Virus record (IMG/VR): IMGVR_UViG_3300020582_000005
DNA from: a virus
Taxonomy: Duplodnaviria; Heunggongvirae; Uroviricota; Caudoviricetes
Direction: 5' to 3' (one strand)
Length of the DNA: 64,000 bases
The position numbers and the translations under genes are program-made. Below the pieces are notes generated by a model. The model did not search any database. It was not told the origin of the DNA and worked only from the letters and a program-made list of their open reading frames with translations. How positions within the stretch are numbered: the first letter of the stretch is position 1; every line of letters starts with the position of its first letter. Shown here piece after piece: positions 5,536-58,133 of this stretch.

Positions 5536-6496
5536 ATCGTGTCCTGACGGCTTCTGTGCTTCGTTCATAGCACATAAGCGATATCCCGAGGCTGAAATTC
5601 TCCCGTTGAATCACGGTGATCCTCTGCCTATTGAACAGGTTAGAGGGAAAGATGTCATCGTTTTAGATTTTTCTTGGAAACGTCGAGAAGATAATGAAGC
5701 TGTCGCTGCTTCAGCCAAGTCAATCTGGATTTTAGACCATCATAAAACATCTCTTCAAGCTTGCCAGGGTTTACCATATGCTACGTTTGACATGAGTCGA
5801 TCTGGTGCCGGGTTGACGTGGGATTATCTTTTCGGCAAAGATTCTCCACGAGCACAGGACGCAGCAAATTGCTCTGTTGTGGATATGTATAAATACAATA
5901 AAATTCTTGAAGAGATGAGACGCCCTTGGTACGTTAATTATATCGAGGATTACGATCTGTGGAATCATAAATTAATAAGCACTGAGGAAGTTAACGCCTT
6001 TTTGCATTCGTTAAATTTCGACTTCGCTGAGTGGGAAGAACTCGATAATATACACTGGCTTGATGCAGCAGAGCGTGGTAAGTATGTGGTTCGTAACAAT
6101 GAACGTCGAGTTAAATTAGCACTACAGCAAGCTTTTGAAGGACGGTTAGTAATTAACCCAGGAGGATTCGATCCAGAAGCTTTTTCGTGCGATTACTCGG
6201 TGAAAATAGTCAATACTCAATATACGGATGCTTCTGAAGTCGGAGCAGCATTAGTTGAATCGGGCGCAGATATCGGCTTGACTTGGTTTGAACGTGGCGA
6301 TGGAATGATTCAGTTCAGTCTTCGATCTTTAAAAGGCGGTCCTGTAGATGTTTCTAAAGTAGCTGCACTTATCGCACCTGGAGTCGGTGGTGGGCATCAG
6401 TCGGCGTCCGGAGCACCATTACCAATTTATCAGGGGCGAGCATTGATCGACTCTATTTTGAATCGAAAGTGTGGATTGGGAGTAAAGTTTCAGTGA
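5501..6496 (+). CDS. DHH/DHHA1-family phosphoesterase (NrnA/RecJ-like)
   Basis: Contains DGD...ILDHHKT (DHH motif) and GVGGGHQSASGA (GGGH motif). Start is placed at MEKIMDL, though 5513 is also possible. The ORF-track start at 5456 overlaps the upstream gene. Confidence 0.75.
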   Translation: MEKIMDLIISHKSCPDGFCASFIAHKRYPEAEILPLNHGDPLPIEQVRGKDVIVLDFSWKRREDNEAVAASAKSIWILDHHKTSLQACQGLPYATFDMSRSGAGLTWDYLFGKDSPRAQDAANCSVVDMYKYNKILEEMRRPWYVNYIEDYDLWNHKLISTEEVNAFLHSLNFDFAEWEELDNIHWLDAAERGKYVVRNNERRVKLALQQAFEGRLVINPGGFDPEAFSCDYSVKIVNTQYTDASEVGAALVESGADIGLTWFERGDGMIQFSLRSLKGGPVDVSKVAALIAPGVGGGHQSASGAPLPIYQGRALIDSILNRKCGLGVKFQ

Positions 6497-7173
6497 GAAC
6501 GTTGATAGCAGTAAAGTCGTGTCACGATGATCTAGATAAGGGTTGTCACGATACTATTAAACAAACTTGGGGTAAAAATGTTCAATGTGATTTACGTTTC
6601 TTCGTGGGTCAGAAAGTTGGAACACCTTGGAGATGGGGCGGTCTTTTAGATACTATTTATTTAGACGTGAAAGACGATTATAATAGTTTGCCTCAAAAAA
6701 CAAAACGAATCCTTCAGTGGTCTTTTGGGAGGGATTACGATTTTATATTTCTTTGCGATGTAGACACATTCTTGATCCCGTATAAATTATTTCAAACTGA
6801 TTTTCAGAAATTTGATTATTCGGGACGATTTGGTTCTTCGCCCAAGATAGGGTCTACTTTTCACTTTAAGGATGGAAGAGGAATTCATCACTTTCATTGC
6901 CACCCGTGGGCGTCAGGGGGATTTGGGTATGCGCTGTCCCGTAAAGCAGCTGAAATAGTTATTCGTACAGAATCTGGAATGTGGGCCGAGGACATGATGG
7001 TCGGCAATTGTCTTGGCCCTGAGATTCAGTCTGGTAATGTGACGGCGAGTGATTTAATGAGATTCGAGAATGAAGCAAGCTGGCATTATCCGGCGCATAA
7101 ACTTGGGTGGACTCGGGAACGAATGAAACTGTGGATGTGTGAAATGTATAAGGAGCATTTCTTTGATAGTTAG
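6469..7173 (+). CDS. Fringe-like (GT31-like DxD) glycosyltransferase, paralog 1
   Basis: Shares D..KIKQTWGK, YDFIFLCDVDTF.IP, FDYSGR, GGFGYALSRKAAE and WHY motifs with the ORFs at 12646, 13308 and 15678. Confidence 0.55.
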   Translation: MWIGSKVSVRTLIAVKSCHDDLDKGCHDTIKQTWGKNVQCDLRFFVGQKVGTPWRWGGLLDTIYLDVKDDYNSLPQKTKRILQWSFGRDYDFIFLCDVDTFLIPYKLFQTDFQKFDYSGRFGSSPKIGSTFHFKDGRGIHHFHCHPWASGGFGYALSRKAAEIVIRTESGMWAEDMMVGNCLGPEIQSGNVTASDLMRFENEASWHYPAHKLGWTRERMKLWMCEMYKEHFFDS

Positions 7174-7918
7174 ATTAACTGGTGGCTTAGGAAATCAGTT
7201 GTTCATGTACGCATTCGGAAGATCAGTTGCAGCGATAGCTAATGAACCTTTGAAGTTTCATTGGTGTCGTTCAACGTGGGATTATGCTCTTGAACCCTTT
7301 CATCTTCCAATAATACTAGGTTCTCCTGATGGAGCGGAGCTTACATATGAAGAGTCAGGATTCTTTTACGATTCAAAAATAGCTAGTGGAATAAGGGTAT
7401 CTTCCAGACCTCGTCCATGTGAAAGAATTTATTTTCGTGGTTATTGGCAGAGCGAAAAATATTTCAATGTAGATTTGATTAGAAAAGATTTCGATTGGTG
7501 GGTTAACTCTCCGCTGAGAGTACAGTTTAGAAACAAAGCCTTCATTCACGTCCGTCGTGGTGATTATCTAAATCGAGGTACTAAGGAATTCCATGGATCG
7601 CTTCCATTGGAATATTATCAAGCGGCAGTTGCCTATATTAAAGAGCGTGTTCCTGATATAACTTTTGAAGTCTTTACAGATGATCCCGACATGAAAGAGT
7701 TCATGGGTTATCCTGTAGTTTCAACTGGAAATCAGCATCTAGATTTACACACGATGACTAAGTATTCTCATGCAATCTTGGCTAACTCTACATTTTCGTG
7801 GTTCGGGGCATGGTTAGGCGAGCATTCAAGTCAAATTGTTATAGCTCCAAAGAAATGGTTTCAAGATGAAACAATTAATACTTCTGATTTAGTACCTGAT
7901 CGCTGGATAAGGATTTAA
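7139..7918 (+). CDS. GT11 alpha-1,2-fucosyltransferase-like
   Basis: N-terminal IVRLTGGLGNQLFMYAF and the signature FIHVRRGDYL of GT11 FutC/WbsJ-type enzymes. Confidence 0.8.
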   Translation: MKCIRSISLIVRLTGGLGNQLFMYAFGRSVAAIANEPLKFHWCRSTWDYALEPFHLPIILGSPDGAELTYEESGFFYDSKIASGIRVSSRPRPCERIYFRGYWQSEKYFNVDLIRKDFDWWVNSPLRVQFRNKAFIHVRRGDYLNRGTKEFHGSLPLEYYQAAVAYIKERVPDITFEVFTDDPDMKEFMGYPVVSTGNQHLDLHTMTKYSHAILANSTFSWFGAWLGEHSSQIVIAPKKWFQDETINTSDLVPDRWIRI

Positions 7919-7921
7919 ATT

Positions 7922-8374
7922 ATGTCGTCTCAAACTTATAGAGAAACACACCGAGAAATCAATAAAATTAAACAAAGGGAGTGGAGAGCGGCTAATCGAG
8001 AGCACCATCGTGCATATTCACGAAAATACAGTAAAGAACATCCTGAACGACGTAAAGCACAATAAAAGAAGTTACCAGCTAGATACGCTCGTTTGAAGGC
8101 TCACGCTAAAAGTTATGAATTGATTTGTTCAATTTCTTTTGAGCAATACAAATCATTAATAGAGAATCCCTGTTATTATTGCGGAGAAAAATTAGCACTA
8201 TTGCAAACCGGCAGTGGATTAGATCGTATTAATTCTTCCGAAGGTTATACACTTGAAAATCTTCGTGCCTGTTGTATGATATGTAATCAAGCTAAAAATG
8301 TACGTTCAGAAAATGAATTTAGAGAATGGGTAAATAAAATTTACCACTATTGGATTAGCAAGGTGTCTTTATGA
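7922..8374 (+). pseudogene. HNH endonuclease interrupted by an in-frame TAA (N-part 7922-8065, HNH part 8066-8374)
   Basis: ATG at 7922 encodes MSSQTYRETHREINKIKQREWRAANREHHRAYSRKYSKEHPERRKAQ. A TAA follows at 8063-8065, and the same frame continues KKLPARYARLKAHAKSYEL...CYYCGEKLAL...LDRINSSEGYTLENLRACCMICNQAKN (HNH). The downstream part has no in-frame ATG before the HNH motif. Confidence 0.55.
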
Positions 8375-9333
8375 AACGAGCTTTAATTACCGGGGTTTCC
8401 GGACAAACAGGATCGTATTTAGCGGAGTCGCTTCTCGAAAAGGGATATGAAGTTCATGGAATTATACGTCGATCTAGTTCATTAAATACGGGTCGCATAG
8501 ACCATATTTTTAATGATCTACATCTTCATTATGGAGATTTGACCGACGCCAATTCTATTCGTCATATTGTTCAGGAGTCGAAACCAGACGAAGTGTATAA
8601 TCTTGGCGCACAATCACATGTTAAAGTTTCATTTGAGTTGCCGGTTTATACTGCCGAAGCTACCGGTCTAGGTGCTTTGAATATGTTAGAAGCTACTACT
8701 CAATATGGTCACGCTAAATTTTATCAAGCCTCATCAAGTGAGTTATTCGGAAAAGTTGTCGAAACTCCTCAGAAAGAAACTACTCCGTTCTGGCCACGTA
8801 GTCCTTACGGCATCGCAAAACAATTCGCATATTGGAGTACGGTGAACTATCGTGAAGCTTATAATATGTTTGCTTGTAATGGGATTCTTTTTAATCATGA
8901 GTCGCCTCGTAGAGGTGATACGTTTGTCACACAGAAAATAGTCAAAGCAGCTGTTCGGATCACTCAAGGTAAGCAGGACAAACTTTTCCTAGGTAATCTG
9001 GATGCCCGAAGGGATTGGGGCTACGCCAAGGATTATGTTGAGGCTATGTGGCTTATGCTTCAACAAGATAAACCAGATGATTACGTGATCGCCACGGGCG
9101 AAACCCACTCCATAAAAGAGTTCTTGACAGAAGCCTTCAGCTATGTTAATCTAGACTGGACTAAGTATGTAGAGATCGATTCTAAGTATTATCGCCCCGC
9201 TGAAGTGGATTTGTTATTGGGAGACGCTTCAAAGGCTAGACGACAGTTAGGTTGGGAGCCACGAGTGAAGTTTAAAGAGTTGGTTAAAATTATGATGGAA
9301 GCGGAGTTAAATGCTCGATCTTTTAATTCGTGA
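8371..9333 (+). CDS. gmd: GDP-mannose 4,6-dehydratase
   Basis: Near end-to-end similarity to bacterial Gmd: [74 protein letters not shown]. Confidence 0.95.
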
Positions 9334-10309
9334 CGCCGAAGAAACTTTAAACATAGTTGACTACAGTCCACTAGATGGTGCTCGTGTCTTTATTTCTGGG
9401 GCCACAGGTTTGATCGGTATGCACTTGATGACAATTTTGTACGTTCTTAAACAGCGAGGGTATAAGATAGAAGCTTTTGGACAGTATCATAACGAGCCTG
9501 CGTGGTATACTAACCAACTTGCAAAACGGGCTGGATTTAATCTCTATCACGATTCAATGCGATTTGTATCAGCCGATATTATTATTCATGCGGCTGGATA
9601 CGGTCAACCTGTCATTTTTATGCAAAATCCAGCAGATACAATCCATGTAAATACAACTATCACGGAACGATTATTAAAATCTCTCGCTCCTGGCGGTCGC
9701 TTCCTTTTTGTAAGTTCGAATGAAGTTTATCATGGTTTACAGAAAGAATTCGCTACGGAAGAAGATATCGGGAGCACTACTCCTTACCATCCACGGGCAG
9801 GTTATGTCGAAGGAAAACGAAGCGGTGAAGCCATAACTTATGCCTATCGTAAAAATGGAGTAAATGCCTCTTCTGCCCGGTTAAATTTGACTTATGGCCC
9901 AGGCGTTCGTAAGGATGATAAACGTGCTTTGAGCCAATTTATTGATCAGGCGATCACGAAGAATCATATTGAGATGAAGTTTTCAGGCAAGGAAATGAGA
10001 ACTTGTTGTTACGCCAAAGATGTCGCAACGATGCTCTGGAAGGTTGTTCTGCACGGCACTAAACCCGTCTATAACGTTGGTGAGCGCTCTACCACTAGTA
10101 TTGCTGAATTAGCTACGATTGTTGCCCGATTAACTAATTCAACTATTCACATTCCGGAAGAGGATAAAGAATTACCCGGTTCCCACGCCTTACCTAGAAT
10201 GGATATCGGTTTAATGGAAGCGGATATGGGAAAGATGAACTATACCACTTTGGAAGAAGGTCTGAAGAGAACAATTGAGTGGCAACGGAGATTATATGGA
10301 TCATTTTAA
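9311..10309 (+). CDS. NAD(P)-dependent extended-SDR epimerase/reductase (Fcl/ColC/Rmd-like)
   Basis: [15 protein letters not shown] (Rossmann fold) and a Y-x-x-x-K motif (YVEGK). It sits directly after gmd. The exact activity cannot be told from sequence alone. Confidence 0.6.
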
Positions 10310-10838
10310 GATTGAAGAGGAAAAGTTTAATGGACGTGTCAAGTTGATTCGTTCCACTTGCTTTGAAGATGAGCGTGGATATTTCAACATCACTTATCTC
10401 GATAATGAAATGCAAGAAATGGGACTTCCACGATTTGTTCGTGATCTTCACTCTCGGTCAATGAAAAATGTTATACGAGGTTTACACTTTCAATTTACGC
10501 CCCCAATGGCAAAATTAATGCGGGTCACTCAAGGAAGAATTTTTATGGTAGCAGTCGATGTTCACAAACAGTCCGCTACATTTTTACAGTACTATAGTCT
10601 TATTATGCAGAAGGGAGACAAACTTTTACTTTGGGGTGATTCTTATATCGCTCGTGGATTTTGTGCTTTACAGGAATCTGAAGTACAGTACAAATGTTCT
10701 AGTCATTTCGACAAAGCATCTGATGACGCAATTCTATGGAACGATCCTATGATAGGTATCGATTGGCCAGTTAAAGACCCCACTTTATCAGATAGGGATA
10801 GGCACGCCATGACTGCGAAGGAGTTTTTCCATCTATGA
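10275..10838 (+). CDS. RmlC-like cupin sugar-nucleotide 3,5-epimerase
   Basis: FEDERGYF, GLHFQ, VTQGRIFMVAVDV and WNDPMIGIDWP resemble dTDP-4-dehydrorhamnose 3,5-epimerase family enzymes. Confidence 0.7.
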   Translation: MSGNGDYMDHFKIEEEKFNGRVKLIRSTCFEDERGYFNITYLDNEMQEMGLPRFVRDLHSRSMKNVIRGLHFQFTPPMAKLMRVTQGRIFMVAVDVHKQSATFLQYYSLIMQKGDKLLLWGDSYIARGFCALQESEVQYKCSSHFDKASDDAILWNDPMIGIDWPVKDPTLSDRDRHAMTAKEFFHL

Positions 10839-11992
10839 GATCGATAACTTTAGGACATTTGAATATCAGTGAAAACGGAAAACGTTATGTTAATAATGCG
10901 TTGAATGCTAATCGTTTAAGTCGTGGTAAATTTACCGAGTCGTTTGAATTTTCTTTCGCTGAACTACATCAAGTAAAACATGCGTTATTTTGTAATAGCG
11001 GTACATCTGCGCTACAAATCGCTTTGGCGGCATTGAAAGAAGTTTACGGATATAAAGATGGGGACGAAGTCATTGTTCCAGCAACTACGTTTATCGCTAC
11101 GTCTAATATCGTCCTACAAAATAATCTTAAACCCGTGTTCGTTGATGTCAGTCCTGAAACTTATAATATCAATCCATTCAAAATTTCAAAAGCTATTACT
11201 GATAGAACACGTTGTATCATTCCTGTTCATTTGTTTGGCTTGCCAGCGGATATGCACAACATAATGATTACTGCGAAGGGTTACGGATTGCAGGTACTTG
11301 AAGATTCGTGTGAAACTATGTTTGCTACACAAAATGGTAAGTCAGTTGGAAGTTTTGGAGATTTAGCTTGTTTCTCAACTTATGTTGCTCATTTAATTGT
11401 CGGTGGAGTTGGTGGTATTGTCACTACATCGAATTCTAAATTATACGACATATGTCGCAGTTTGATGAATCATGGTCGTAGTACAGATTATATTTCAATA
11501 GATGATGATGATAACCTCCCGACGGACATTATGGATCGACGTTACGAATTTGAAAGAGTAGGCTATTCTTATAGAGCCACAGAGCTAGAAGCCGCCCTCG
11601 CTTTAGCAGAATTAGAACAACGTGAAAACAACATTATAGCACGGCGACGAAATGCCCACGAATTGACTACACTGTTGAAGGATGTTAATTGGTTGCAGTT
11701 ACCGAAAATTCCCGAAAAGATGACGCATAGTTTTATGATGTATCCTATAGTCGTTAAACCTTTTACAAAGAAACGAAATGATTTTCTTATTTATTTAGAA
11801 CGAAACGGAATTGAGACGAGATATATGTTTCCTCTGTTGAGTCAACCGATTTATCAGAAATTATTTCCACGAGAAGAGTCTAAACACTATAACGCTGTGG
11901 GATTAGCAGAACGGGGCTTTTTTATAGGAATTCACCAAGGTCTAAATGGTGATGACATGCAGTATATCGCTAAAGTGATCAAGGATTATTAA
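10835..11992 (+). CDS. DegT/DnrJ/EryC1-family PLP enzyme with His in place of the Schiff-base Lys (ColD/E1-like putative sugar 3-dehydratase)
   Basis: Aminotransferase class-V-like fold. The segment CFSTYVAHLIVGGVGG aligns by eye to the SF-x4-K-x4-GEGG motif (ArnB FSFHAIKNITCAEGG), with H at the Lys position. Confidence 0.7.
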   Translation: MRSITLGHLNISENGKRYVNNALNANRLSRGKFTESFEFSFAELHQVKHALFCNSGTSALQIALAALKEVYGYKDGDEVIVPATTFIATSNIVLQNNLKPVFVDVSPETYNINPFKISKAITDRTRCIIPVHLFGLPADMHNIMITAKGYGLQVLEDSCETMFATQNGKSVGSFGDLACFSTYVAHLIVGGVGGIVTTSNSKLYDICRSLMNHGRSTDYISIDDDDNLPTDIMDRRYEFERVGYSYRATELEAALALAELEQRENNIIARRRNAHELTTLLKDVNWLQLPKIPEKMTHSFMMYPIVVKPFTKKRNDFLIYLERNGIETRYMFPLLSQPIYQKLFPREESKHYNAVGLAERGFFIGIHQGLNGDDMQYIAKVIKDY

Positions 11993-11998
11993 AGCAAA

Positions 11999-12649
11999 AT
12001 GACGATTCAAGAAATAAGACGTGATGTAATCATTAGTATTTTAAAGGATGTAAAGTTTCCGGTTATCGTGGAAGCCGGAGCCTGTCACGGTGAAGATAGC
12101 CAAATGTTAACTTATGCAGCTACTTATCCCGAGAATATTATCCACGTAATGATCGAACCCGATCCCGAGAACTGTGAAGTTATTCGACGAACCGCACTAG
12201 ACATTCCAGGCAGACGCTTGATTGAAGGCGCAGTAGCCAAATATTCTGGTTTTAGAAAGTTTAATCGTGCAATTGAAATAAAAACTGGTTATCGATTTTG
12301 TGGATCGTTATTAGAACCACGGAAAGATGCATTTCGGCAGATGAACTTCGATGAGGTGATTGAAGTTCAATGCTACACTCTCGATGAGATTTTTCAGCAA
12401 CAGGGCTTAACTCACGTCGATTTACTGTGGGCCGACGTTCAAGGCGGGGAAAGAGGAATGCTTGAAGGCGGCGAAGCGGCCCTTTCTAAAACTCGTTACT
12501 TGTTTATGGAAGTCGTTAAAGAAGAACAATATGTAGGAGAAGCTCTTAAAGAAGAATTAGTTTCCTTATTAGAACAAAGAGGCTGGTCAATCGTAATCGA
12601 TTTCGACACTATTGGCGATGTTCTGATGAAAAATGAGAGGTATCAATGA
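11999..12649 (+). CDS. FkbM-family methyltransferase
   Basis: IVEAGACHGEDS is a glycine-rich SAM motif. The protein is the size of FkbM-domain proteins and lies in the sugar locus. Confidence 0.5.
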   Translation: MTIQEIRRDVIISILKDVKFPVIVEAGACHGEDSQMLTYAATYPENIIHVMIEPDPENCEVIRRTALDIPGRRLIEGAVAKYSGFRKFNRAIEIKTGYRFCGSLLEPRKDAFRQMNFDEVIEVQCYTLDEIFQQQGLTHVDLLWADVQGGERGMLEGGEAALSKTRYLFMEVVKEEQYVGEALKEELVSLLEQRGWSIVIDFDTIGDVLMKNERYQ

Positions 12650-13350
12650 GAGTTTTAATAGCGATTATTTCTTTTCAGGGAGACGCTGAAAACGGGAATC
12701 ACGATAAGATTCGGCAAACTTGGGGGAAAGACGTTGCTATAACCGGTGCCGATCTACGCTTTTTCCTTGGGCGACGTGATAAGTTTTATAAGCCAAAAGC
12801 TGATGAAACATCGATTCCTTGGCAAGAGGACGGAACTAGGAAGTGTCAGCACCCTTATTGGACAGCCGTAGCAGGCTGCTGCGTCGAATACTGGCAAGTC
12901 CTTTATAGAGGAATTCTTGATTGGTCGCTACGTAACGGATACGATTACACGTTTCTCGCTGAAAATGACACTTTCTTGATACCACGGAAGTTGATGAAAA
13001 GTGGTTTTGAAAACTACGATTTTTCTGGCTGGATGATGTATACCCACTCAGATAAGCCTGATCAATATTACGTTGAACCCGGTGCTGGATATTTTCTTTC
13101 ACGACGAGCCTCTGAAGCTATTCTGAAAACAACTCCGGATCATTTGCATTTTGAAAATCTTGCTTGCGACGTTTTAAAGCCGATGCAGGAACGTGGGGAA
13201 ATGACAATTAAGTCTCTAGATCATTTTTGGAACGAGACTTCGTGGCACTATAGAGCGCAAGGAATTATAGACCCGGTGATTAGAGACGGCTATCCGGTAG
13301 GCTCTCGTTGGATGTTCGATATGTATCGGCAGCACGGAGCAGATCAATGA
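12646..13350 (+). CDS. Fringe-like glycosyltransferase, paralog 2
   Basis: HDKIRQTWGK, YDYTFLAENDTFLIP, YDFSGW, AGYFLSRRASE, WHY. Confidence 0.55.
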   Translation: MRVLIAIISFQGDAENGNHDKIRQTWGKDVAITGADLRFFLGRRDKFYKPKADETSIPWQEDGTRKCQHPYWTAVAGCCVEYWQVLYRGILDWSLRNGYDYTFLAENDTFLIPRKLMKSGFENYDFSGWMMYTHSDKPDQYYVEPGAGYFLSRRASEAILKTTPDHLHFENLACDVLKPMQERGEMTIKSLDHFWNETSWHYRAQGIIDPVIRDGYPVGSRWMFDMYRQHGADQ

Positions 13351-14048
13351 GAATTCTAGTGGCTGTTTATTCTCATTCCGGAGATTCCGTCAATGGAAAC
13401 CATCAAAAAATTCGAAATACCTGGGGTAAACATGTAGCGCCTTGGGATGTTCGCTTTATGATTGGGCACCGAGACGCCCCAGGCTGGCATATCCAGAACG
13501 ATGAAGTGCTTTTACCTGAACGAGCCAATCGTGCTTGCGGAAATGACTGGTTACTTTGGAATCTTTATTATCAAGAATTAACTATTGAGATGCTTCGGTG
13601 GTCTTTAGAACAAGGTTACGATTTCACGTTTCTTTGCTGCAATGACACGTTCATTATCCCTAGTAAACTGAAAGCGACAGACTTCGAAAAATATGATTAC
13701 TCGGGGATTTTTTATCCTCTTAGTCAGTTAGGAGAAACTTTTTACGAGCCTTTCTATAAGCGGCAGGCTTATGTAGCAGCGGACGCAGGCACGGGCTGGT
13801 TTATGAGTCGTAAAGCATCGGAAATAGTTCTTAACAGTACTCAGGGTGAGTATTTCGGCACTAGTGATCAATATACAGGACAAGTTTTGGGACCGTATAT
13901 TAAGTCTGGAACAATTACTGCAAAGAATCTAGATAATTTTCATCACGTAGCCGCTTGGCATTACCGGGAAGAAGAGAATGCTTTATCAACTGGATATTCT
14001 ATCGGTTCCACTTGGATGCATCAAATGTATCAGAAATACGGGGGATAG
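13308..14048 (+). CDS. Fringe-like glycosyltransferase, paralog 3
   Basis: HQKIRNTWGK, YDFTFLCCNDTFIIP, YDYSG, GWFMSRKASE, WHY. Confidence 0.55.
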   Translation: MDVRYVSAARSRSMRILVAVYSHSGDSVNGNHQKIRNTWGKHVAPWDVRFMIGHRDAPGWHIQNDEVLLPERANRACGNDWLLWNLYYQELTIEMLRWSLEQGYDFTFLCCNDTFIIPSKLKATDFEKYDYSGIFYPLSQLGETFYEPFYKRQAYVAADAGTGWFMSRKASEIVLNSTQGEYFGTSDQYTGQVLGPYIKSGTITAKNLDNFHHVAAWHYREEENALSTGYSIGSTWMHQMYQKYGG

Positions 14049-14909
14049 ATGGAAAATAAAACTTACAAACCTGTCATCTACGCTAACCACGAGTTGAATG
14101 TTCCTGAATTGAATTGGAGAGCATCGATTTCGGTAGACTACTTCAATTTTGAAGATCGAACGCCGTACAAAATATTTTGGCAGTTAGAGCCTGAAGACAT
14201 CACTCCAACGGAAAAGAAACTCATCAAGAATCACCAATTCTACGATCTCATTTTGACTTACAATAATACTGTACTAAGTGAATGCTCTAATGCTGTTTTC
14301 TTTTTGAACAATGGAGTTTGGACCCACGAAAGTGATGTATCACAGAAAAAATTTGCCGTTTCCTTTTTGACCAGTGCAAAGACGATGTGTCCTGGGCATA
14401 AATTCCGTGTCATGACTTTTAAGAAATTACAACAGTATTTAGAGGGAAGTAATTCTGCCCTACCTTGTCCTTTAACGATGCACATGTCCCCTCCTTATCT
14501 ACCCGACAAGCGGAGTATGCTAATACCATTTCAATATGCAATTTCAATTCAAAATTCTCAGATGCATAACTACTTCTCGGAAATTCTTTTAGATTGTTTT
14601 GCTACTAAGACGATTCCTATTTTCTGGGGAAGCGCCAATGTCGGAGAATTTTTTAATCCAGACGGCATTTTGTCTTTTGGTAATCCTTACGATCCTAGAG
14701 CTAGGACAACCTTGAATGATGTTTTGTTGTCCTTGACACCTGATTTTTATCATTCACCTAAGGTCCAGGCAGCGATAGAAGAAAATTATCTGAAGTCTCT
14801 TACATACTCAGATAGGATAGGCCGTTTGGTTAACGCTATCACAGATTCGTGGACTCCGAAGATAACTAAAATTCATAGTGGAGAACCAAATGTCGCTCCC
14901 AACAGTTAG
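14049..14909 (+). CDS. GT10 alpha-1,3/4-fucosyltransferase-like
   Basis: The C-terminal block YQYAISIQNSQMHNYFSEILLDCFATKTIPIFWGSANVGEFFNP matches the GT10 motif (Y.F.L.FENS...YVTEK......IP.YWGS....FNP). Confidence 0.7.
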   Translation: MENKTYKPVIYANHELNVPELNWRASISVDYFNFEDRTPYKIFWQLEPEDITPTEKKLIKNHQFYDLILTYNNTVLSECSNAVFFLNNGVWTHESDVSQKKFAVSFLTSAKTMCPGHKFRVMTFKKLQQYLEGSNSALPCPLTMHMSPPYLPDKRSMLIPFQYAISIQNSQMHNYFSEILLDCFATKTIPIFWGSANVGEFFNPDGILSFGNPYDPRARTTLNDVLLSLTPDFYHSPKVQAAIEENYLKSLTYSDRIGRLVNAITDSWTPKITKIHSGEPNVAPNS

Positions 14910-15681
14910 CCTAGTTTGTCCAACATATAATCGTCAACAATTTCTTCCTGTGGCTATACGTAGTTTTTTACAGCAGACATATCGACCTCTTGAACTGATT
15001 TTTGTTGATGATAGTGGTGATTTATCATGGACTCAAAATTTAGATATTCCATTTGTTTATGTCCGTCTGAGTAAACGTACACCGACAGGCACAAAAAGAA
15101 ACATGGGTGCCGATTTAGCCACAGGTGATATAATCGCTAATTGGGATGATGACGACTGGAGTATGGCTCATAGAATTCAAACTCAAGTCATGCACTTAGA
15201 AAATTCTCAGAAAGCCGTCACAGGATACAACGTGACAATATGTTATGATGAAAAGACACGGGGTTTTTATAGGAATCAAGGCGGTCCTCCTTATTTCGCA
15301 TCCGGAACGTCCCAGATGTACTGGAAAAGTTGGTGGCGTGAGCACCCGTATCCAGATGTAACTTTTGGCGAGGATAGCGTTTTCTCTAGAACAGCACGGC
15401 TTAAGGATCAATTAGCTATTTTTAGTCCAGGGAAAATGCTTGTCGCTAGAAAGCATCAAGCTAACACCGATAAAGTACCGCTTAAGTGGCTTAAAAACGT
15501 AGATTCGAGGGAAATTCATACCGACTTTTTCCGGGCGCTGGAAAGTCCGTCGTTTTCAGATACTTACTTGAAAGAAAAACACGTTTGTTATCAAGAGTGT
15601 CACGAGGAACTTGAACGAGATTTCGCTGGACAAATGATAGACTATCGTGTAAACTGGACTCCGGAGATTAAAACCCGATGA
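14878..15681 (+). CDS. glycosyltransferase family 2
   Basis: LSLVCPTYNRQQFLPVAIRSFLQQTY...LIFVDDSGD and a later DDDD motif. Confidence 0.8.
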   Translation: MENQMSLPTVSLVCPTYNRQQFLPVAIRSFLQQTYRPLELIFVDDSGDLSWTQNLDIPFVYVRLSKRTPTGTKRNMGADLATGDIIANWDDDDWSMAHRIQTQVMHLENSQKAVTGYNVTICYDEKTRGFYRNQGGPPYFASGTSQMYWKSWWREHPYPDVTFGEDSVFSRTARLKDQLAIFSPGKMLVARKHQANTDKVPLKWLKNVDSREIHTDFFRALESPSFSDTYLKEKHVCYQECHEELERDFAGQMIDYRVNWTPEIKTR

Positions 15682-16337
15682 AGATATTGGCTGCTGTTGA
15701 GTCTTGTCAGGCAAATCGACATTTGCATCAAGCTATGCTCGATACGTGGCTTGGTACTTTATCCACTATGGATATAGACTGTCGTTTCTTTATCGGCGGT
15801 TTGAGTGAGCCTGAAAATCACCTTGAGGTATGGGTTCCTTGTTTAGATACATATGATAATCTAGCCGTTAAAACGAGAGGAATTTGTAGATGGGCTGCTA
15901 CCAATAATTATGATTTTCTTTTCAAGTGTGATACTGATACCGTTGTTAATCCGAAGCGTCTTTTAGAAAGTGGATTCGAACAATATGATTATATGGGCGC
16001 TGAAAATTGTGATAATCTTCCGCCTAGTTTAAATGCGGCTTTTCCTGAATGCGTCGGAGGAAAAATTTCGTTTGCGAGTGGCGGTGCAGGCTATTGGTTA
16101 AGTCGAGATGCTATGTCCTACGTAGCGAATGGACCACTCGCATCATTTCCAGAAGATGTATATGTTTCTGGGGTATTAGGCGATAACTACATTTATCCGG
16201 TATGGCACAAGGGGTACCGCTGGCGACCAGGATCGAAGATTAAAGGCGCAACAACTTTCCATTTATCTAGTGCATTGCAGGTGAAATACCGCCCTGAGTT
16301 GATGTACGAATATTATAAGAAAATACTTGACAAATAA
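15678..16337 (+). CDS. Fringe-like glycosyltransferase, paralog 4
   Basis: YDFLFKCDTDTVVNP, YDYMG and GGAGYWLSRDA are shared with the other three paralogs. Confidence 0.55.
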   Translation: MKILAAVESCQANRHLHQAMLDTWLGTLSTMDIDCRFFIGGLSEPENHLEVWVPCLDTYDNLAVKTRGICRWAATNNYDFLFKCDTDTVVNPKRLLESGFEQYDYMGAENCDNLPPSLNAAFPECVGGKISFASGGAGYWLSRDAMSYVANGPLASFPEDVYVSGVLGDNYIYPVWHKGYRWRPGSKIKGATTFHLSSALQVKYRPELMYEYYKKILDK

Positions 16338-26425: not shown

Positions 26426-26552
26426 ACGATCTTATCAAACGCAATTCTGAACTAGAACAAGAGAATATTCAACTAAAGAAACGTGCCGAAAAAGCAGAAC
26501 AAACACTACTAGAAATTCAAGCAGCGTGGAAAACTATCACCAGAATTATGAG

Positions 26553-27518
26553 ATGCTATTCATGAGTTTACCTGGGGCTACAGACGTTGGTGTAGTGATC
26601 GGTCGATTTCAAGTGCCGAATCTTCACGAAGGTCATCGGAGTCTACTCGATTTAGTCGCAACTAGACATAAACGGGTTTTAATTCTACTAGGATCGCCTG
26701 CGTGGAAGGGTGGTAAGAGTGATCCTCTTGACTACCATACTCGGGCATTGATGTTTCATCAAGAGTATCCAGACTTTCTAGTTGCACCAGTGACAGATAC
26801 GCAATCAAATGATCAGTGGTCAGAGCAAGTAGATAAAATTATCCAGAGTGTATTTTCACTTTGTCAAGTGACACTTTATGGAGCACGAGACAGTTTCATC
26901 GATCAATATAATGGGCGATACAAAACAAGCGAAATTATACAGTCTGTTGAATCTTCTGGCACAACTGTTCGAGAATATACAGCAGCCATGCCTCAGGAAA
27001 AAGAAAGTTTCCGTGCCGGTGCAATCTATGGAATTCTAAACAATCCAAGTCTGATAGTGCCATGCGTTGACGGCGCTGTCTTAAGAAAGAGCGAGGATGA
27101 AATTCGAGTTGTATTGATCAGGAAACCAGATGAAAAACTTCTCAAATTTCCTGGTGGGAAAGTGGAATACGATGACAAATCCTACGAATCCGCCGTCAAT
27201 CGAGAAGTCCGAGAAGAAACCGGACTTGAAGTCGGAACCCCGATCTACGTCACGTCCAGTTGTAGTCTGCCTGATTGGAGAGCTATCGGCGCTGGAATTG
27301 CTGTACATACTTCTCTCTTTGCGCTCCGATTTATATATGGCGCTCCCAAAGGTCGAGACGACGCAGCTGAAGCCGGATGGTTCAACCTCTTTGAAATAAA
27401 AGAGGCGCAGATGGAAGATTGCCATAAAAAGTTGTTGACAACTTTGAAAGCTTGGGTTAGTATAAATTCAGGAGACTTCTTCAATGACGAATTTACTGCT
27501 GCAGACCGACTCATATAA
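26553..27518 (+). CDS. nadM: bifunctional NMN adenylyltransferase / Nudix hydrolase (NadM-Nudix type)
   Basis: The N-terminus VGVVIGRFQVPNLHEGH carries the (H/T)xGH nucleotidyltransferase motif. The C-terminal Nudix box is GGKVEYDDKSYESAVNREVREETGLE. The start is uncertain (26526, 26553 or 26562). Confidence 0.8.
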   Translation: MLFMSLPGATDVGVVIGRFQVPNLHEGHRSLLDLVATRHKRVLILLGSPAWKGGKSDPLDYHTRALMFHQEYPDFLVAPVTDTQSNDQWSEQVDKIIQSVFSLCQVTLYGARDSFIDQYNGRYKTSEIIQSVESSGTTVREYTAAMPQEKESFRAGAIYGILNNPSLIVPCVDGAVLRKSEDEIRVVLIRKPDEKLLKFPGGKVEYDDKSYESAVNREVREETGLEVGTPIYVTSSCSLPDWRAIGAGIAVHTSLFALRFIYGAPKGRDDAAEAGWFNLFEIKEAQMEDCHKKLLTTLKAWVSINSGDFFNDEFTAADRLI

Positions 27519-28920
27519 ACTGACACACTTCAAACAATACCCGCCAAAGACACAGTATGTCTACTCTTATCTAGAAAGTCGTGGCGGTCAATTCGACAAC
27601 ACAGTATTCTTTGGTCTGCAATATCTCTTGAAGAAATACTTGGTAGGGAAAGTATTCACACCGAAAGATATAGAAGCTGCAAATCGATTTGCTTTGGCAC
27701 ATTTCAGTCGAACCGATTGTTTCAACTATACCGGATGGTATCAGTTGTACAATAAATACGATGGTGTTCTGCCTATTAAGATTAAGGCAGTTCCTGAAGG
27801 CTCTGTTATTCCAGTTCATAATGTTTTGATGACAATCGAGAATACGGATGCGGACTTCCCGTGGCTGACGAATTATCTCGAAACGATTCTAATGAAGGTG
27901 TGGTATCCGACAACGGTTGCAACCCTGTCTCGGGAAATCAAGAAACTTATCACAGACTATCATACAAAGACAGGTTCAGACCTTAGTGGCATAAATTTCA
28001 AGCTACACGACTTTGGATACAGAGGGGTCAGTTCAGAGGAAACAGCAGGAGTTGGCGGGGCCGCTCATCTTCTTAATTTTCAGGGCACGGATACAATTGC
28101 CGGAATCTTGCATTTGCAAGAATATTATTCTAAAATCGAAGCAAAAGAGATAGTCACATCTACTCTTAAAAATGAGGGTGGTCAATTCCCAGGGCCAGGG
28201 ATGTACGGATTCAGTATTCCTGCAGCAGAGCATTCAACAATCACATCCTGGGGCAAAGATAACGAATATCAGGCAATGAAAAATATGCTTGATCAATATC
28301 CCGGCACTGTGGCCATTGTCAGTGATTCTTACGATTTGAAGGAAGCCGTCAATGTAGTTCTTGGATGGAAACTTCGAAATCAGATCATTCACCGAGATGG
28401 GGCTGTCGTGGTACGTCCAGACTCAGGGGACCCGGCGACTGCTGTAGGAAATGTCCTCGAATGGCTCGATAGTAAATATGGGTCCGAAGTAAATAGTAAA
28501 GGATTCAAGGTTCTTAATCCACACGTTAGAGTGATTCAAGGAGACGGAGTAAACTATGAATCCATCAGAGGGATTCTAGCGCATATCCACAATCGGGGGT
28601 GGGCGGCTGAAAACGTCGCATTCGGCATGGGTGGGGCGCTTCTACAGAGACTGGACCGAGATACGCAACGATTTGCTATCAAATGTTCCTCCATTACAGT
28701 TGACGGTGTGGAAAGAGACGTATGGAAAGAGACGATCACTGATACAAGTAAGGCTAGTAAACGGGGCCGCTTAGTTCTCGGGCACAATGGCAGAGAATTC
28801 ATCACCGTCAAAGCTGAACCCGGTCTGATATACACAAGCGATAATCTAAAAACAGTCTTTGAAAACGGGGAACTAAAAATCGACCAGACGGTAGAAGAAA
28901 TTAGGAAAAGGGCAGAGTAA
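27484..28920 (+). CDS. nadV: nicotinamide phosphoribosyltransferase (NAMPT/NadV)
   Basis: 478 aa. The N-terminus LLQTDSYKLTHFKQYP is typical of NAMPT. Length and domain order fit. Confidence 0.9.
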   Translation: MTNLLLQTDSYKLTHFKQYPPKTQYVYSYLESRGGQFDNTVFFGLQYLLKKYLVGKVFTPKDIEAANRFALAHFSRTDCFNYTGWYQLYNKYDGVLPIKIKAVPEGSVIPVHNVLMTIENTDADFPWLTNYLETILMKVWYPTTVATLSREIKKLITDYHTKTGSDLSGINFKLHDFGYRGVSSEETAGVGGAAHLLNFQGTDTIAGILHLQEYYSKIEAKEIVTSTLKNEGGQFPGPGMYGFSIPAAEHSTITSWGKDNEYQAMKNMLDQYPGTVAIVSDSYDLKEAVNVVLGWKLRNQIIHRDGAVVVRPDSGDPATAVGNVLEWLDSKYGSEVNSKGFKVLNPHVRVIQGDGVNYESIRGILAHIHNRGWAAENVAFGMGGALLQRLDRDTQRFAIKCSSITVDGVERDVWKETITDTSKASKRGRLVLGHNGREFITVKAEPGLIYTSDNLKTVFENGELKIDQTVEEIRKRAE

Positions 28921-30557: not shown

Positions 30558-31490
30558 ATGAAGCTAAGCGAACAGTCTGAAAGGTTCATCCGTCAAATCG
30601 CTAACCGGAAGCGTGCTCCTGCCCGTTTAGCTACGCTCAAGACCTTCCAAAACCGGTTAAATAGCGTTATCCTGCCTCGACTTGGCGAGATGGACCTTAA
30701 AGACATTGAAAATGGCGTCGTACGGCGGTTTATAGCTGACATTTCTCAGGAATTAGCTCCAAGCACCGTGACAGCTACTTTGTCACTCTTAAAGGCTGTA
30801 ATAGCCTCTGCTGTGGATGAAAATGGCAATCGGACATATAACCGGACCTGGAATGCTGACTTTATAGACGCCCCTTTGATAGTCCAGAAAGACCTAAATG
30901 CCCCTGTAATAGGCCGGGAATCGCTTTCAGAGGCGATTTCCAAGGCTCAGGGAGTAGATAAGCCTCTATATGCCATCCTAGCCGGAACGGGGCTTAGAAT
31001 CGGAGAGTGCCTAGCTCTGGGAACCGGACAGGGAACCGGTCTAAACATCTGGAATCCGGCTAAGGCTACTTTAAGCATTCGAAGCACTGTTTTACAGAAC
31101 GGAGAGATTCAACCGATGCCTAAAACAGAAGCAGGCATTAGAGAGGTTGATATTCATCCAGAATTGAACAAATTTCTCACTGGCACTCTCTTAAGAGAGG
31201 GCGAGAAAAGGGGTTTGTTATTCCAAAACAGTAATAAACCCCTTGTTTATTCTACAGTACTTCGCCGGATGCATAAACTAGGAATCGAAGAGGCATTTCA
31301 TGCCTTTCGCCGCTTTCGTGTGACACATCTTGAAGCCAATAACGTGCCGCATACTTTGATTCAATTTTGGGTTGGACATGCCGCCGGAGATATTACGGAT
31401 CAATACACTAGGATTGGTTCCGATATTCAAACTCGAAAAGAATGGTGCGAAAAGGTTGGTTTAGGGTTCAAAATTCCTGATGTGGGATAG
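30558..31490 (+). CDS. int: tyrosine integrase/recombinase
   Basis: The catalytic residues are in order: R (GLRIGE), HAFRRFRVTHL (H-x-x-R), VGH, and the Tyr in DQYTRIG. Confidence 0.8.
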   Translation: MKLSEQSERFIRQIANRKRAPARLATLKTFQNRLNSVILPRLGEMDLKDIENGVVRRFIADISQELAPSTVTATLSLLKAVIASAVDENGNRTYNRTWNADFIDAPLIVQKDLNAPVIGRESLSEAISKAQGVDKPLYAILAGTGLRIGECLALGTGQGTGLNIWNPAKATLSIRSTVLQNGEIQPMPKTEAGIREVDIHPELNKFLTGTLLREGEKRGLLFQNSNKPLVYSTVLRRMHKLGIEEAFHAFRRFRVTHLEANNVPHTLIQFWVGHAAGDITDQYTRIGSDIQTRKEWCEKVGLGFKIPDVG

Positions 31491-31595
31491 CACAGATTAC
31501 ATGATTTTAGGTATATTTAGTTTACTGTTAATTGCAATCGGCTCCATATGTTATGCTGTAATTTGTTTAATTCTAGACAAATAAAAAGAGGAGAT

Positions 31596-32483
31596 ATGGG
31601 AATATTGTTTTTTCTGTTGTTCGTAGCGGGGATTATTTTGGCAATTGTGTTGCCGATAGTAACATTCGTTCAGACTGAGAAGGTTAAGCTAAGCCGTTCG
31701 ATTCCAGGTATTGGAGTCGCTCTGTTTTTCTTGACACTTGCTCTGTCTTTTACTACAATCGATGCTGGCAGTGTCGGTATTGTCAAGCGATTCGGACAGG
31801 CCACCCGCCAGCTACAACCAGGAGCGCACTTTGTTCTGCCATATGCAGACACTGTCACACCTGTTGCCGTTCAAACTAGAATTGTCAAGCCAAGCGAAGA
31901 GGCTTCTAGCCGTGATCTTCAGATGGTAAATTTTGAAGTCACATTCGCTTATCATGTTGATTCAGCGCACGCAACAGAAATCTTGACTCAATTAAATGAT
32001 GATGCTGAATCCCGTGTGATCACTCCAGCTATTCTTGAAGCTATTAAGTCTGTCACAGCGCAATACGATGTGCAAGAATTGGTTGGCAAGCGACCGGAAG
32101 TTCGGGATAAGATCGAATCGTTTGTCAAGACCCGATTGCTCCCTTACCACATTGTAGCTGAAACCGTCAGCATCACTAACTTCAAATTTTCTGAGCAGTA
32201 CGAACAGAGCATTGAAGCCAAGGTGACGGCTCAGCAAAATGCCGAGAAAGCCTTGAACGATCTACAGCGTATTAAAACTGAGGCGCAACAAAAGATCGAA
32301 CAAGCTAAGGGAGAAGCTGAAGCTCTGAAGTCTCAGAAGGAACAAATCACGCCTGAACTTCTTCAGCTTCGCACGATTGAAATGATGTCAAAGAATTGGG
32401 ATGGTCATCTACCAACTACCATGGTAGGCGGAAGCGGAGCACTCCCAATGTTGGATGTTCTTGAAGCAGCACGAAAGAAGTAG
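31596..32483 (+). CDS. SPFH/band-7 (stomatin/prohibitin-like) membrane protein
   Basis: The RBS AAAGAGGAG precedes the ATG at 31596. An N-terminal TM helix is followed by the SPFH core GIVKRFGQATRQLQPGAHFVLPYADTV and a coiled-coil C-terminus. Confidence 0.75.
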   Translation: MGILFFLLFVAGIILAIVLPIVTFVQTEKVKLSRSIPGIGVALFFLTLALSFTTIDAGSVGIVKRFGQATRQLQPGAHFVLPYADTVTPVAVQTRIVKPSEEASSRDLQMVNFEVTFAYHVDSAHATEILTQLNDDAESRVITPAILEAIKSVTAQYDVQELVGKRPEVRDKIESFVKTRLLPYHIVAETVSITNFKFSEQYEQSIEAKVTAQQNAEKALNDLQRIKTEAQQKIEQAKGEAEALKSQKEQITPELLQLRTIEMMSKNWDGHLPTTMVGGSGALPMLDVLEAARKK

Positions 32484-37400: not shown

Positions 37401-37575
37401 CCTCAGGTTTACCTGTCTGCTGAAGTACACTATCTAGAGTTCCAATATGTTCCGGATTCGTCAATGTTGTAGGTTGCAAAGCTGGAGCAGGCGCAGGGGA
37501 CGGAGTATCAGGCGAATCTGGAGAATCGGCTGGTTTACCCGTTGCTCTTAAAATGTCATCTAGATTTTGAGGCAT
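34438..37575 (-). CDS. large virion/ejection-type protein with zincin-like HExxH motif
   Basis: 1045 aa. It has a Pro/Ala-rich N-terminus, a Gly/Ala-rich middle and HELAHAVLAYMAGFEV in the C-terminal half. It is the last gene of the structural operon. Confidence 0.55.
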   Translation of the reverse strand: MPQNLDDILRATGKPADSPDSPDTPSPAPAPALQPTTLTNPEHIGTLDSVLQQTGKPEAVPEDVQKQQGMIEQLKQEVAGPGTVLGEAPAAGEGIRRMLQGDIVGGAKQAAQGYKKMATASLTKGSEQIDGQKHPILKAGLEFAEGMTSPINLGLIAASGGLGMIDSAAKIYAVHQLANLGLTSQQIVDMYNRFPEVKKAWDKGDSSKVLYEGTHLLLSGALTVAGMYDMAGKPLEVASPTDRAVAGKVAEVAGKTATAVKEAPGKVAAAVKDKISVPRVEVKSNPIKDIADAFPPSKTNPYDVEKAPQVAYNALAAEHKLNTIHDPAEAAEALQSQITKAEDKVMQGAIKQVPDEPILKNNKPVNVWDEVKSELDSRKYAEAGFVDKAMDELEKFGLTKGKSVTVSDADRIRRQLNDQTTAIEKKPDYQQVRIENVDPKYAALQVAKDVLRDGVYDTIDAHGLDKGVTARDFRRDIIGNLISFKNAVLDKVYGADQQVKGTAPEAPEEPLTRRVARGVAPVAGALVGSKSGALGAAAGAYLGREAGEKLLPPPEVPEDLTRSELLDRALNHPEADKFVTETPEEQQIRGRIQKPETPEAKGQEEIPYGPIPLFGRLQGKPTPLEMYPEDLNKISNYINSLREALENPTATSVEKDAAQHQLEQIFGGRIPEGFKRPKEQGAAEPAPKLVKAYGEFEAPSEIKSQTGLDTKAILNHELAHAVLAYMAGFEVHDIISGEHVAASPQTIAALRVSLPEDLVKRSDGTLEPKGLKERLPDVLSMYLAGAAANELYDGVKIEDNKALGADLREVKDALDLLGLSEEEKDKFIEWGITRAKATLSDPEVENLINEFSDTRERGLPESHHYSVIRLMEFKDRLDSLRGKNANNPEGTHGVGTEHNPAGESNRETSVASSDTGEAAGTAADEIRETDDDAFKRDLFESLRLPYKPPPTGTGPGGTLLKTENSLPPERTTGEYDAPIKEAGAIPGGIWKGDKELNIPDMALFHDPTSGSTLALPVDKVTKEAVTEQLEKSREQYRQAAQRKAS

Positions 37576-39617: not shown

Positions 39618-39628
39618 TCCTCTTTAAG

Positions 39629-40393: not shown

Positions 40394-40794
40394 AGTTTGT
40401 ACTCTCCAACAGATTCCTCTACAGGACGAAATCCTCTCGAAACCATAAATCTAATTAAACTCGAATTAGATGAATTAAAAATAATACTTTTTCCCTTACT
40501 CATTAAATGCATCAATAGGGGAGGTAAACCTTCGTTCATCGCTAATATGAGACGTAAACGACTAACTTCTTTTCTCGGACCGAATTGACAGTGAAGTCTA
40601 AACTGTTTTGTCTCTTCCTCAACTTTCAAATAAACAACCGGACCCATTTCGTCTTGCACACAGGCGCAAACATAAGCGTCGCTTCCCGTTAACCACCAAT
40701 CGGGTTGTTTCTGATTTTGATGCCAAGGATCGGCCTCTGTCCACTCTCGTATTTGATCTATGTCTTCTTTAACTGACGGAATAAATTTAATCAT
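40360..40794 (-). CDS. hypothetical structural-module protein
   Basis: 144 aa. Confidence 0.45.
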   Translation of the reverse strand: MIKFIPSVKEDIDQIREWTEADPWHQNQKQPDWWLTGSDAYVCACVQDEMGPVVYLKVEEETKQFRLHCQFGPRKEVSRLRLILAMNEGLPPLLMHLMSKGKSIIFNSSNSSLIRFMVSRGFRPVEESVGEYKLCVALADKKNN

Positions 40795-41992: not shown

Positions 41993-42004
41993 ATATTCTC
42001 CAAC

Positions 42005-58120: not shown

Positions 58121-58133
58121 ATTATTTCCATCC

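Follow-up and report, generated by a model that had tools for sequence, protein, structure and literature searches.

All known sugar 3-dehydratases carry a histidine in place of the Schiff-base lysine, a substitution recognised as their hallmark (PMC8987622). E1 and SpnQ hold a [2Fe-2S] cluster via four cysteines and need a reductase; ColD has no cluster, its intermediate being hydrolysed and its pyridoxamine 5'-phosphate (PMP) regenerated with glutamate (PMC8987622). Here we describe a gene of this kind, which we call DegT(His), at positions 10835-11992 (plus strand) of a 64,000-nucleotide stretch of viral DNA (Caudoviricetes; IMG/VR record IMGVR_UViG_3300020582_000005), referred to below as the window. 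We propose, with a probability of about 0.72, that its product is a ColD-type, PMP-dependent GDP-4-keto-6-deoxy-D-mannose 3-dehydratase without an Fe-S cluster, acting in a phage-borne pathway to a GDP-3,6-dideoxyhexose. The chemistry is already known; the interest lies in the lineage of the enzyme, which is uncharacterised and very widespread, and in the modular deoxysugar cassette of the phage.

DegT(His) belongs to the DegT/DnrJ/EryC1 fold and encodes 385 residues (ATG start, stop codon included in the coordinates). Its start codon overlaps the stop of the upstream gene in an ATGA, with an AAGGAG Shine-Dalgarno sequence 11 nucleotides 5' of the start, and the family profile PF01041 is matched from end to end (E 6e-92), its positions 4-359 of 360 by residues 12-382. 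Translation and alignments place the active-site strand and loop, CFSTYVAHLIVGGVGG, at 11369-11416 (plus strand), and the codon of His186 is CAT at 11390-11392. In phmmer searches against PDB sequences, this residue falls opposite the Schiff-base lysine (Lys186) of Per, the GDP-perosamine synthase of C. crescentus, FSFFGNKIITTGEGG, and opposite His220 of Y. pseudotuberculosis E1, FYPAHHITMGEGG. By BLASTP it stands, within an ungapped block, opposite His188 of ColD from E. coli O55:H7, for which the reference was taken from the chromosome of strain CB9615 (L083:18701-19867, minus strand). A joint MAFFT alignment repeats all of these placements, and no lysine is invariant at any position of a 120-sequence family alignment. 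The initial annotation, which had aligned the motif by eye, is thus confirmed in its placing of a histidine at the Schiff-base position: no lysine was found there, and the histidine aligned nowhere else.

The cofactor-binding positions of DegT(His) comprise SGTSA at residues 55-59, the aromatic F86, D157 and E160 within EDSCE, and S181; S55-G56-T57, F86, D157, E160 and S181 are invariant in the family alignment and aligned with their equivalents in ColD, E1 and Per. From general knowledge of the fold, we presume that the Asp contacts the pyridine nitrogen and the Ser/Gly-Thr residues the phosphate, with the aromatic residue stacking on the cofactor. The AlphaFold2 (AF2) model reaches a mean predicted local distance difference test score (pLDDT) of 88 and, in Foldseek searches, template modelling (TM) scores of 0.87-0.92 against DegT-family structures. 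The viral structures in BFVD gave only distant fold matches, at most 22% identical to DegT(His).

Two features place the protein with the cluster-free dehydratases. Of the E1 motif C-X57-C-X1-C-X7-C, only the cysteine of EDSCE is present and three of four are absent, the C-X-C-X7-C stretch of E1, GRDCYCAPGCDNTC, being aligned with GRSTDYISIDDDD in the phage protein. Where E1 has its Cys-rich [2Fe-2S] loop, the phage protein has a Cys-free, acidic insertion loop (residues 216-236, STDYISIDDDDNLPTDIMDRR, at 11480-11542 on the plus strand by alignments). Its residues Y219, I222, D223 and D225 (Y-x-x-I-D-x-D) are invariant in the closest 120 homologues, and binding of a metal or a partner by this acidic loop is possible. 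The insertion, which follows an HGR motif, is absent in the Lys enzymes Per and 7B0M, of similar length in ColD and longer in E1, and this indel ties DegT(His) to the dehydratases. About 30 open reading frames (ORFs) of the window were scanned with Pfam, and none of them is E3-like or ferredoxin-reductase-like, although a host enzyme could serve in this role. Since the Fe-S cysteine motif is absent and no ferredoxin-reductase-like ORF occurs among those scanned, chemistry of the ColD type is expected.

The histidine is strongly conserved. Every one of the 120 nearest database homologues (63-100% identical) has His186, and it is found in 49 of 50 viral loci as well as in all 80 cellular loci (49-61% identical), which were drawn from one-genome-per-species collections and span Acidobacteria, bacteria of the candidate phyla radiation (CPR), Planctomycetes, Elusimicrobia, a Paenibacillus, DPANN archaea and others. 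The ratio of nonsynonymous to synonymous substitution rates (dN/dS) between DegT(His) and an 85%-identical orthologue is 0.06, which indicates purifying selection; a pseudogene was rejected on the strength of this value and of the full length of the gene.

Searched exhaustively with HMMER, a set of 1.84 billion representatives yielded 150 sequences, the most distant at about 30% identity, and a histidine occupies position 186 in 133 of these 150 representatives (50% clustering). The type of the phage protein, with His and without the Glu of the xEGG motif (mostly GVGG), accounts for 107 representatives. Two more combine His and a lacking xEGG Glu with a Cys-rich loop, 13 are E1-like (His, xEGG and Cys-rich loop), 11 are ColD-like (His and xEGG, no Cys) and 18 are Per-like (Lys, xEGG and a short loop). 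In a bootstrapped neighbour-joining (NJ) tree, the GVGG/His clade stands apart from all xEGG sequences, ColD, E1 and Per included, with a support of 62/100; the tree leaves its sister group, and a common origin of its histidine with that of ColD and E1, unsettled. Judged from these sequences, the clade, whose signatures are Ala185-His186, Val192 and Ser245, is a large, distinct and uncharacterised lineage of His-type DegT proteins. Some of its members are fused to a GT1 domain, to a GT2 domain plus a methyltransferase, or to a methyltransferase partner (P0123, P0124, P0201 and P0138 are among these proteins), and P0138 is interrupted by an intein. The C-terminal extensions of P0126, P0134, P0136, P0208 and P0219 share an ASRF...GNR motif and look GT2-like by eye; no second Pfam domain was found in P0126 and P0134, the two extensions scanned.

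The genomic context of the clade was read from at most 8 kb on each side of the cellular genes, and from shorter stretches at contig ends. A true GDP-mannose 4,6-dehydratase (Gmd; at least 50% identical) was present in 38 of the 80 cellular loci, in 34 cases no more than 1.5 kb from DegT(His). For the clade member of Paenibacillus thailandensis, Gmd and ManC are the sole such genes nearby. In about 35 loci an epimerase-reductase of the Fcl/ColC family lies beside DegT(His), frequently arranged as Gmd, DegT(His), Fcl-like, and four representatives (P0127, P0128, P0139 and P0152) are natural fusions of an N-terminal ColC-like short-chain dehydrogenase/reductase (SDR) with DegT(His). Because Fcl/ColC-family enzymes act on 4-keto sugars, the product of DegT(His) must keep its keto group, which is true of the product of a dehydratase and not of that of an aminotransferase. 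Taken together, the alignments, the conservation of the histidine, the operon with Gmd, the clade context and the fusions support, on sequence evidence, the 3-dehydratase feeding a GDP-3,6-dideoxyhexose that the initial annotation had predicted. Its broader label, ColD/E1-like, holds for the ColD branch and fails for the E1 branch, whose Fe-S motif is absent; moreover, perosamine synthase is at least as close to the protein as ColD is.

The viral relatives reveal how this core is combined with other functions. IMG/VR holds 47 contigs with relatives of DegT(His), many of them 50-120 kb long. Nearly all viral contigs at least 59% identical keep Gmd, DegT(His) and a glycosyltransferase of family 11 (GT11), and 27 viral loci contain both GT11 and DegT(His). 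The downstream module comes in three forms: a Fcl/ColC-like enzyme alone, which is the classical colitose layout; a pair of an RmlC-like cupin and an SDR resembling UDP-glucuronate decarboxylase (UXS-like), as in the window; or the RmlC-like and SDR pair plus a split enzyme dependent on thiamine diphosphate (ThDP) that is inserted after Gmd. Such swappable tailoring modules behind a constant core of Gmd and DegT(His) fit a shared 4-keto-3,6-dideoxy intermediate.

Two observations on these relatives may be added. The split ThDP pair (E1_dh of about 195 residues and Transket_pyr of 178 residues) lies between Gmd and the SDR (L084:5358-6478, L086:5349-6475, L087:5775-6910) in 9 of the 52 viral and metagenome loci searched (L084-L135), and is absent from the window, where Gmd abuts the SDR. 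By analogy with YerE or AviB1/B2, this pair could attach two carbons as a branch on the 4-keto-3,6-dideoxy sugar. In four IMG/VR contigs (L091, L092, L110 and L122), the SDR, the RmlC-like gene and two ORFs of unknown function are 79-87% identical to those of the window, but DegT(His) is only 67% and GT11 only 36% identical, and these uneven values point to mosaic gene exchange within the cassette.

Several results weigh against the assignment as a ColD-type dehydratase. The GVGG/His clade has no characterised member. Among proteins of solved structure, phmmer, profile and fold searches all rank GDP-perosamine synthases, true aminotransferases, as the nearest relatives, then E1, with ColD lower. 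Identity to the O55 ColD is only 28% (BLASTP), and characterised ColD-type enzymes from E. coli, Yersinia and C. jejuni are mutually 62-67% identical (PMC10440746). In the MAFFT alignment, Val192 replaces the Glu of the xEGG motif that ColD, E1 and Per have, Ser245 stands in place of the Asn of their common GxNxR, and Ala185 takes the position of ColD Ser187. The ColD strand accordingly reads SHHIATMEGG and that of the phage protein AHLIVGGVGG, without the Ser-His pair and the xEGG motif. The structure prediction that the initial annotation had proposed as a check gave a good model overall, but its pLDDT falls below 50 at residues 184-191 of the catalytic loop and lies at about 54-69 in the insertion loop. 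The SDR of the window belongs to a type for which reduction of GDP-4-keto sugars is not known, and 42 of the 80 cellular loci are without Gmd in the stretch fetched. Orthology with ColD was rejected on the 28% identity, the rank below Per and E1, and the split from ColD in the NJ tree.

The enzyme might instead be a sugar aminotransferase that, lacking an internal aldimine, works from PMP and yields GDP-perosamine or a different 4-amino sugar. Its ranking closest to GDP-perosamine synthase (E 2e-51 by sequence, 246 bits by profile, TM 0.87-0.92 by fold) and the JGI label of its homologues, perosamine synthetase, would fit this reading. The His-type enzyme SpnQ does transaminate in vitro when no reductase is supplied, which counts against our proposal, but neither ColD nor E1 showed transamination in similar conditions (PMC8987622). 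A conserved lysine for catalytic regeneration of the cofactor is missing, the Schiff-base position being that of His186, and the Lys-bearing relatives cluster separately, keep the xEGG Glu and have no insertion loop. The RmlC-like, SDR and Fcl/ColC-like partners and fusions, furthermore, need a 4-keto substrate that transamination would remove, and Pfam found no N-acyltransferase in the cassette. We therefore regard an aminotransferase as quite unlikely. Still less probable is a dehydratase of the E1/SpnQ type, in which the sugar-ene would be reduced via a host or phage reductase, with PMP retained and no amino donor. RfbH/E1 is the best NCBIfam model for DegT(His), E1 scores above ColD in the PDB searches, and the Ala-His pair matches E1 (AHH) and not ColD (SHH). 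The model score of 232 bits, however, is far below the 423-bit cut-off, three of the four motif cysteines are absent with an acidic, Cys-free loop in the corresponding place, no ferredoxin-reductase-like ORF is among those scanned, and the E1-like relatives with Cys-rich loops are of another sequence type, in which the xEGG Glu is kept.

The GVGG and GYSYR motifs and the acidic loop could also mark a new activity, that is, a different PMP- or pyridoxal 5'-phosphate (PLP)-dependent reaction on a GDP-4-keto sugar such as an epimerisation, an isomerisation or another elimination. The split of the clade from all xEGG types (62/100 in the NJ tree), with invariant residues of its own, would suit such an activity, as would the roughly half of the cellular loci that have no Gmd in the stretch fetched and in which the gene sits among glycosyltransferases, SDRs and methyltransferases. 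Among the 25 most frequent neighbour families listed for these Gmd-less loci there is no nucleotidyltransferase, so that an alternative nucleotide carrier could not be inferred. We found no positive evidence for another reaction, and since the arrangement of Gmd, DegT(His) and a Fcl/ColC-like enzyme reproduces the three-enzyme colitose pathway, the context requires no extra activity; we consider this alternative improbable.

The 3-dehydratase would thus act in a pathway of five steps, the second of which we infer by analogy with ColD and the C3-dehydratases of C. jejuni. Gmd, whose identity as an enzyme is shown, would convert host GDP-mannose to GDP-4-keto-6-deoxy-D-mannose. DegT(His) would then form a ketimine between PMP and C4 of this sugar, with His186 taking the C4' proton and the C3 hydroxyl being expelled; hydrolysis would give GDP-4-keto-3,6-dideoxy-D-mannose and ammonia, and an amino donor such as L-glutamate would turn the resulting PLP back into PMP. 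The RmlC-like cupin would probably epimerise C5, and the UXS-like SDR could reduce C4 with NAD(P)H, yielding GDP-colitose (L-xylo) or its C4 epimer (L-ribo). Finally, GT11 and a GT10-like enzyme may transfer the sugar onto a glycan built by GT31-like and GT2 enzymes, possibly with methylation by an FkbM-family protein. This glycan may belong to the host envelope or, alternatively, to the virion.

The genes for these steps lie in the window as a co-directional, tightly packed cassette on the plus strand, in which start and stop codons overlap among GT11, Gmd, the SDR, the RmlC-like gene, DegT(His) and the FkbM gene. Gmd (8371-9333; PF16363 E 1.4e-139) is two genes upstream of DegT(His), with the SDR and the RmlC-like gene in between. 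Its score of 514 bits for TIGR01472, against a cut-off of 415, bears out the Gmd of the initial annotation as bona fide, and it belongs to the same operon. A distant blastn search with the phage gmd against E. coli genomes matched many O-antigen copies of gmd and did not single out O55. The adjacent reductase, by contrast, is not the Fcl/ColC-like enzyme that had been annotated: this extended, UXS-like SDR (9311-10309; motifs GATGLIG, SSNEVY and YVEGK) is 23% identical to the O55 ColC, and its best solved relatives are UDP-glucuronate decarboxylases (best PDB match E 5e-28). Its context and position suggest that it is the C4-ketoreductase of the pathway.

The initial annotation had also overlooked a separate RmlC-like cupin epimerase directly upstream of DegT(His) (10275-10838; PF00908 E 2.2e-45; TIGR01221 155.0 bits versus 155.75), the true start of which is probably the ATG at 10296. 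At the positions that correspond to RGLH, K, YKC and D of RmlC, this protein has retained a His, a Lys, a Tyr and an Asp. In C. jejuni, the gene beside that of the C3-dehydratase encodes an epimerase with demonstrated C5-epimerase activity, and it depends on the C4-reductase employed whether the product is L-ribo or L-xylo (PMC10440746). By this precedent, the cupin of the window would act as a C5-epimerase on the 3,6-dideoxy-4-keto intermediate. The next gene after DegT(His) is that of the FkbM-family methyltransferase (11999-12649). It has no counterpart in the 52 related viral and metagenome loci searched, so a methylated form of the sugar or glycan may be made by the phage of the window.

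The cassette also holds genes predicted to serve glycan assembly, all on the plus strand. A Galactosyl_T glycosyltransferase of the GT31 type (6469-7173; PF01762, E 6.2e-7) precedes GT11 (7139-7918; PF01531, E 9.4e-15), a member of the alpha-1,2-fucosyl/colitosyl-transferase family. E. coli O55 has an alpha-1,2-colitosyltransferase, WbgN, with GDP-colitose as its donor (PMC12723683). The phage GT11 is 29% identical (E 2e-35) to the sole GT11-type gene of the O55 cluster, presumably WbgN, and with this precedent it is a candidate transferase for the GDP-deoxyhexose. Beyond the FkbM gene lie two ORFs (12646-13350 and 13308-14048) for which Pfam returned no match and which have relatives, 26-87% identical, in 22 viral loci. 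They are followed by a weakly GT10-like ORF of the alpha-1,3-fucosyltransferase type (14049-14909; PF00852 E 0.002, below the cut-off), whose orthologue likewise carries a weak GT10 flag, a GT2 enzyme (14878-15681; PF00535, E 2.9e-21) and a second Galactosyl_T-like, GT31-like enzyme (15678-16337; PF01762, E 9.5e-6). A hydropathy scan predicted no membrane span in the proteins of the cassette, and no Wzx, Wzy or priming transferase is among them. The GC content of the cassette equals that of the window (0.36-0.44 versus 0.42), and a recent transfer into the phage was rejected on this basis.

As a set, GT11, the GT10-like enzyme, the two GT31-like enzymes and GT2 resemble the builders of H, Lewis and ABO-type determinants. 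The related phage contig L087 additionally has a GT6 enzyme (glycosyltransferase region L087:9349-10781), and an ORF for a collagen-like protein (11824-12993 of that contig) lies among its glycosyltransferases. Between GT11 and Gmd, the window holds a 93-residue ORF (8093-8374) with weak matches to HNH endonucleases (E about 0.02), and in a sister phage the cassette is preceded by a LAGLIDADG endonuclease gene (L084:1523-1978); it is possible that both are homing endonucleases in the glycan module.

The window is a phage or prophage, which corrects the initial annotation. Its predicted products include a large terminase (58134-60266, minus strand), a portal protein (55982-58246) and, by a weak match, a major head protein (53268-54293), together with a GH108 endolysin, an SLT transglycosylase, an endonuclease VII and a tyrosine integrase; tRNA genes were not found in it. 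A near-identity DNA search of INPHARED with the structural region returned no near relative, and tblastn found relatives there at no more than 40% identity, so that this collection holds no annotated close phage relative. The gene of the integrase (30558-31490), an enzyme that points to a temperate lifestyle, adjoins that of an SPFH/Band-7 protein (31548-32483); lysogenic conversion of the surface glycans of the host would be consistent with such a lifestyle. The window further carries an NAD-salvage pair, in which a 330-residue protein with a C-terminal Nudix domain (26526-27518) is followed by a nicotinamide phosphoribosyltransferase (27484-28920; phrog_448, E 1e-155), and on the minus strand, at 34438-48081, four very large ORFs of the structural region (1045, 680, 769 and 1255 residues) whose matches in PHROGs are absent or marginal. 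In the literature we found nothing relevant on phage-encoded colitose or 3-dehydratase pathways.

A wider scenario, which we put forward as speculative and rather unlikely, would see the GVGG/His clade as a separate Lys-less DegT lineage that arose perhaps from Per-like aminotransferases, independently of ColD and E1, or that has a modified reaction, and that forms the entry to a modular deoxysugar toolkit of phages. The window might then yield a GDP-3,6-dideoxyhexose, possibly methylated, and the ThDP pair of the sister phages a GDP-linked, yersiniose-like sugar, with GT11, GT10, GT31 and GT6 enzymes building a Lewis or blood-group-like glycan on the virion or the host.

If the 3-dehydratase is confirmed, C3 deoxygenation would become the assigned function of thousands of environmental proteins of this clade from bacteria, archaea, CPR bacteria and phages, some of which are now automatically labelled 'perosamine synthetase' or 'aminotransferase', and the predicted glycans would gain 3,6-dideoxyhexoses in place of amino sugars. 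A ColD-like enzyme with another active-site strand, lacking the xEGG Glu and having an Ala-His pair and an acidic loop, would furthermore become available to study which residues beyond the histidine decide between dehydration and transamination. Large environmental phages would be seen to carry complete, modular pathways for rare dideoxy sugars along with enzymes of fucosyltransferase families, and phage-directed glycosylation of surfaces or virions with dideoxy sugars would become directly testable.

Among the described systems, Per of C. crescentus (PDB 3BN1/3DR4) has the highest overall similarity to DegT(His), with 33% identity, a TM score of about 0.9 and GDP-4-keto-6-deoxy-D-mannose as the presumed substrate of both. 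It differs in having Lys186, the Glu of GEGG and the Asn of GFNYR, in being without the insertion of 14-16 residues, and in making an amino sugar, for which neither a reductase nor an epimerase is needed. E1 (CDP-6-deoxy-L-threo-D-glycero-4-hexulose 3-dehydrase, RfbH/AscC) shares the histidine (H220/H186), the Ala-His pair and an insertion after the HGR/WGR motif, and provides the best NCBIfam model. The [2Fe-2S] cysteine motif of E1 and SpnQ is absent, however, no E3-type reductase is among the ORFs scanned, and E1 and SpnQ act in a CDP or dTDP context, whereas that of the window is GDP.

ColD (WbdK in E. coli O55:H7; also present in Y. pseudotuberculosis) resembles DegT(His) in its DegT fold, its histidine (H188/H186), the absence of an Fe-S motif and the similar length of the insertion loop, and also in a substrate supplied by a Gmd-type enzyme and a GT11 gene in the same cluster. 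Its SH, MEGG and GYNVR motifs stand against AH, GVGG and GYSYR in the phage-encoded protein, and the downstream enzyme in the window is not a ColC. Closest in the layout of the whole route is the GDP-3,6-dideoxyheptose pathway of C. jejuni, which likewise combines a 4,6-dehydratase, a PLP/PMP-dependent C3-dehydratase, an RmlC-like C5-epimerase adjoining the dehydratase and an SDR as C4-reductase; its HS:5 and HS:11 C3-dehydratases are orthologues of ColD that adjoin a cupin C5-epimerase and work with a separate C4-reductase (PMC10440746). This division of labour was established biochemically, and in it the heptose intermediate moved from 616.08 to 600.08 by mass spectrometry, a loss of 16 Da (PMC10440746). 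That pathway produces a heptose from a capsule locus with a dehydratase of another clade, whereas the window, with Gmd, a UXS-like reductase and the GVGG/His protein, would lead to a hexose in a phage.

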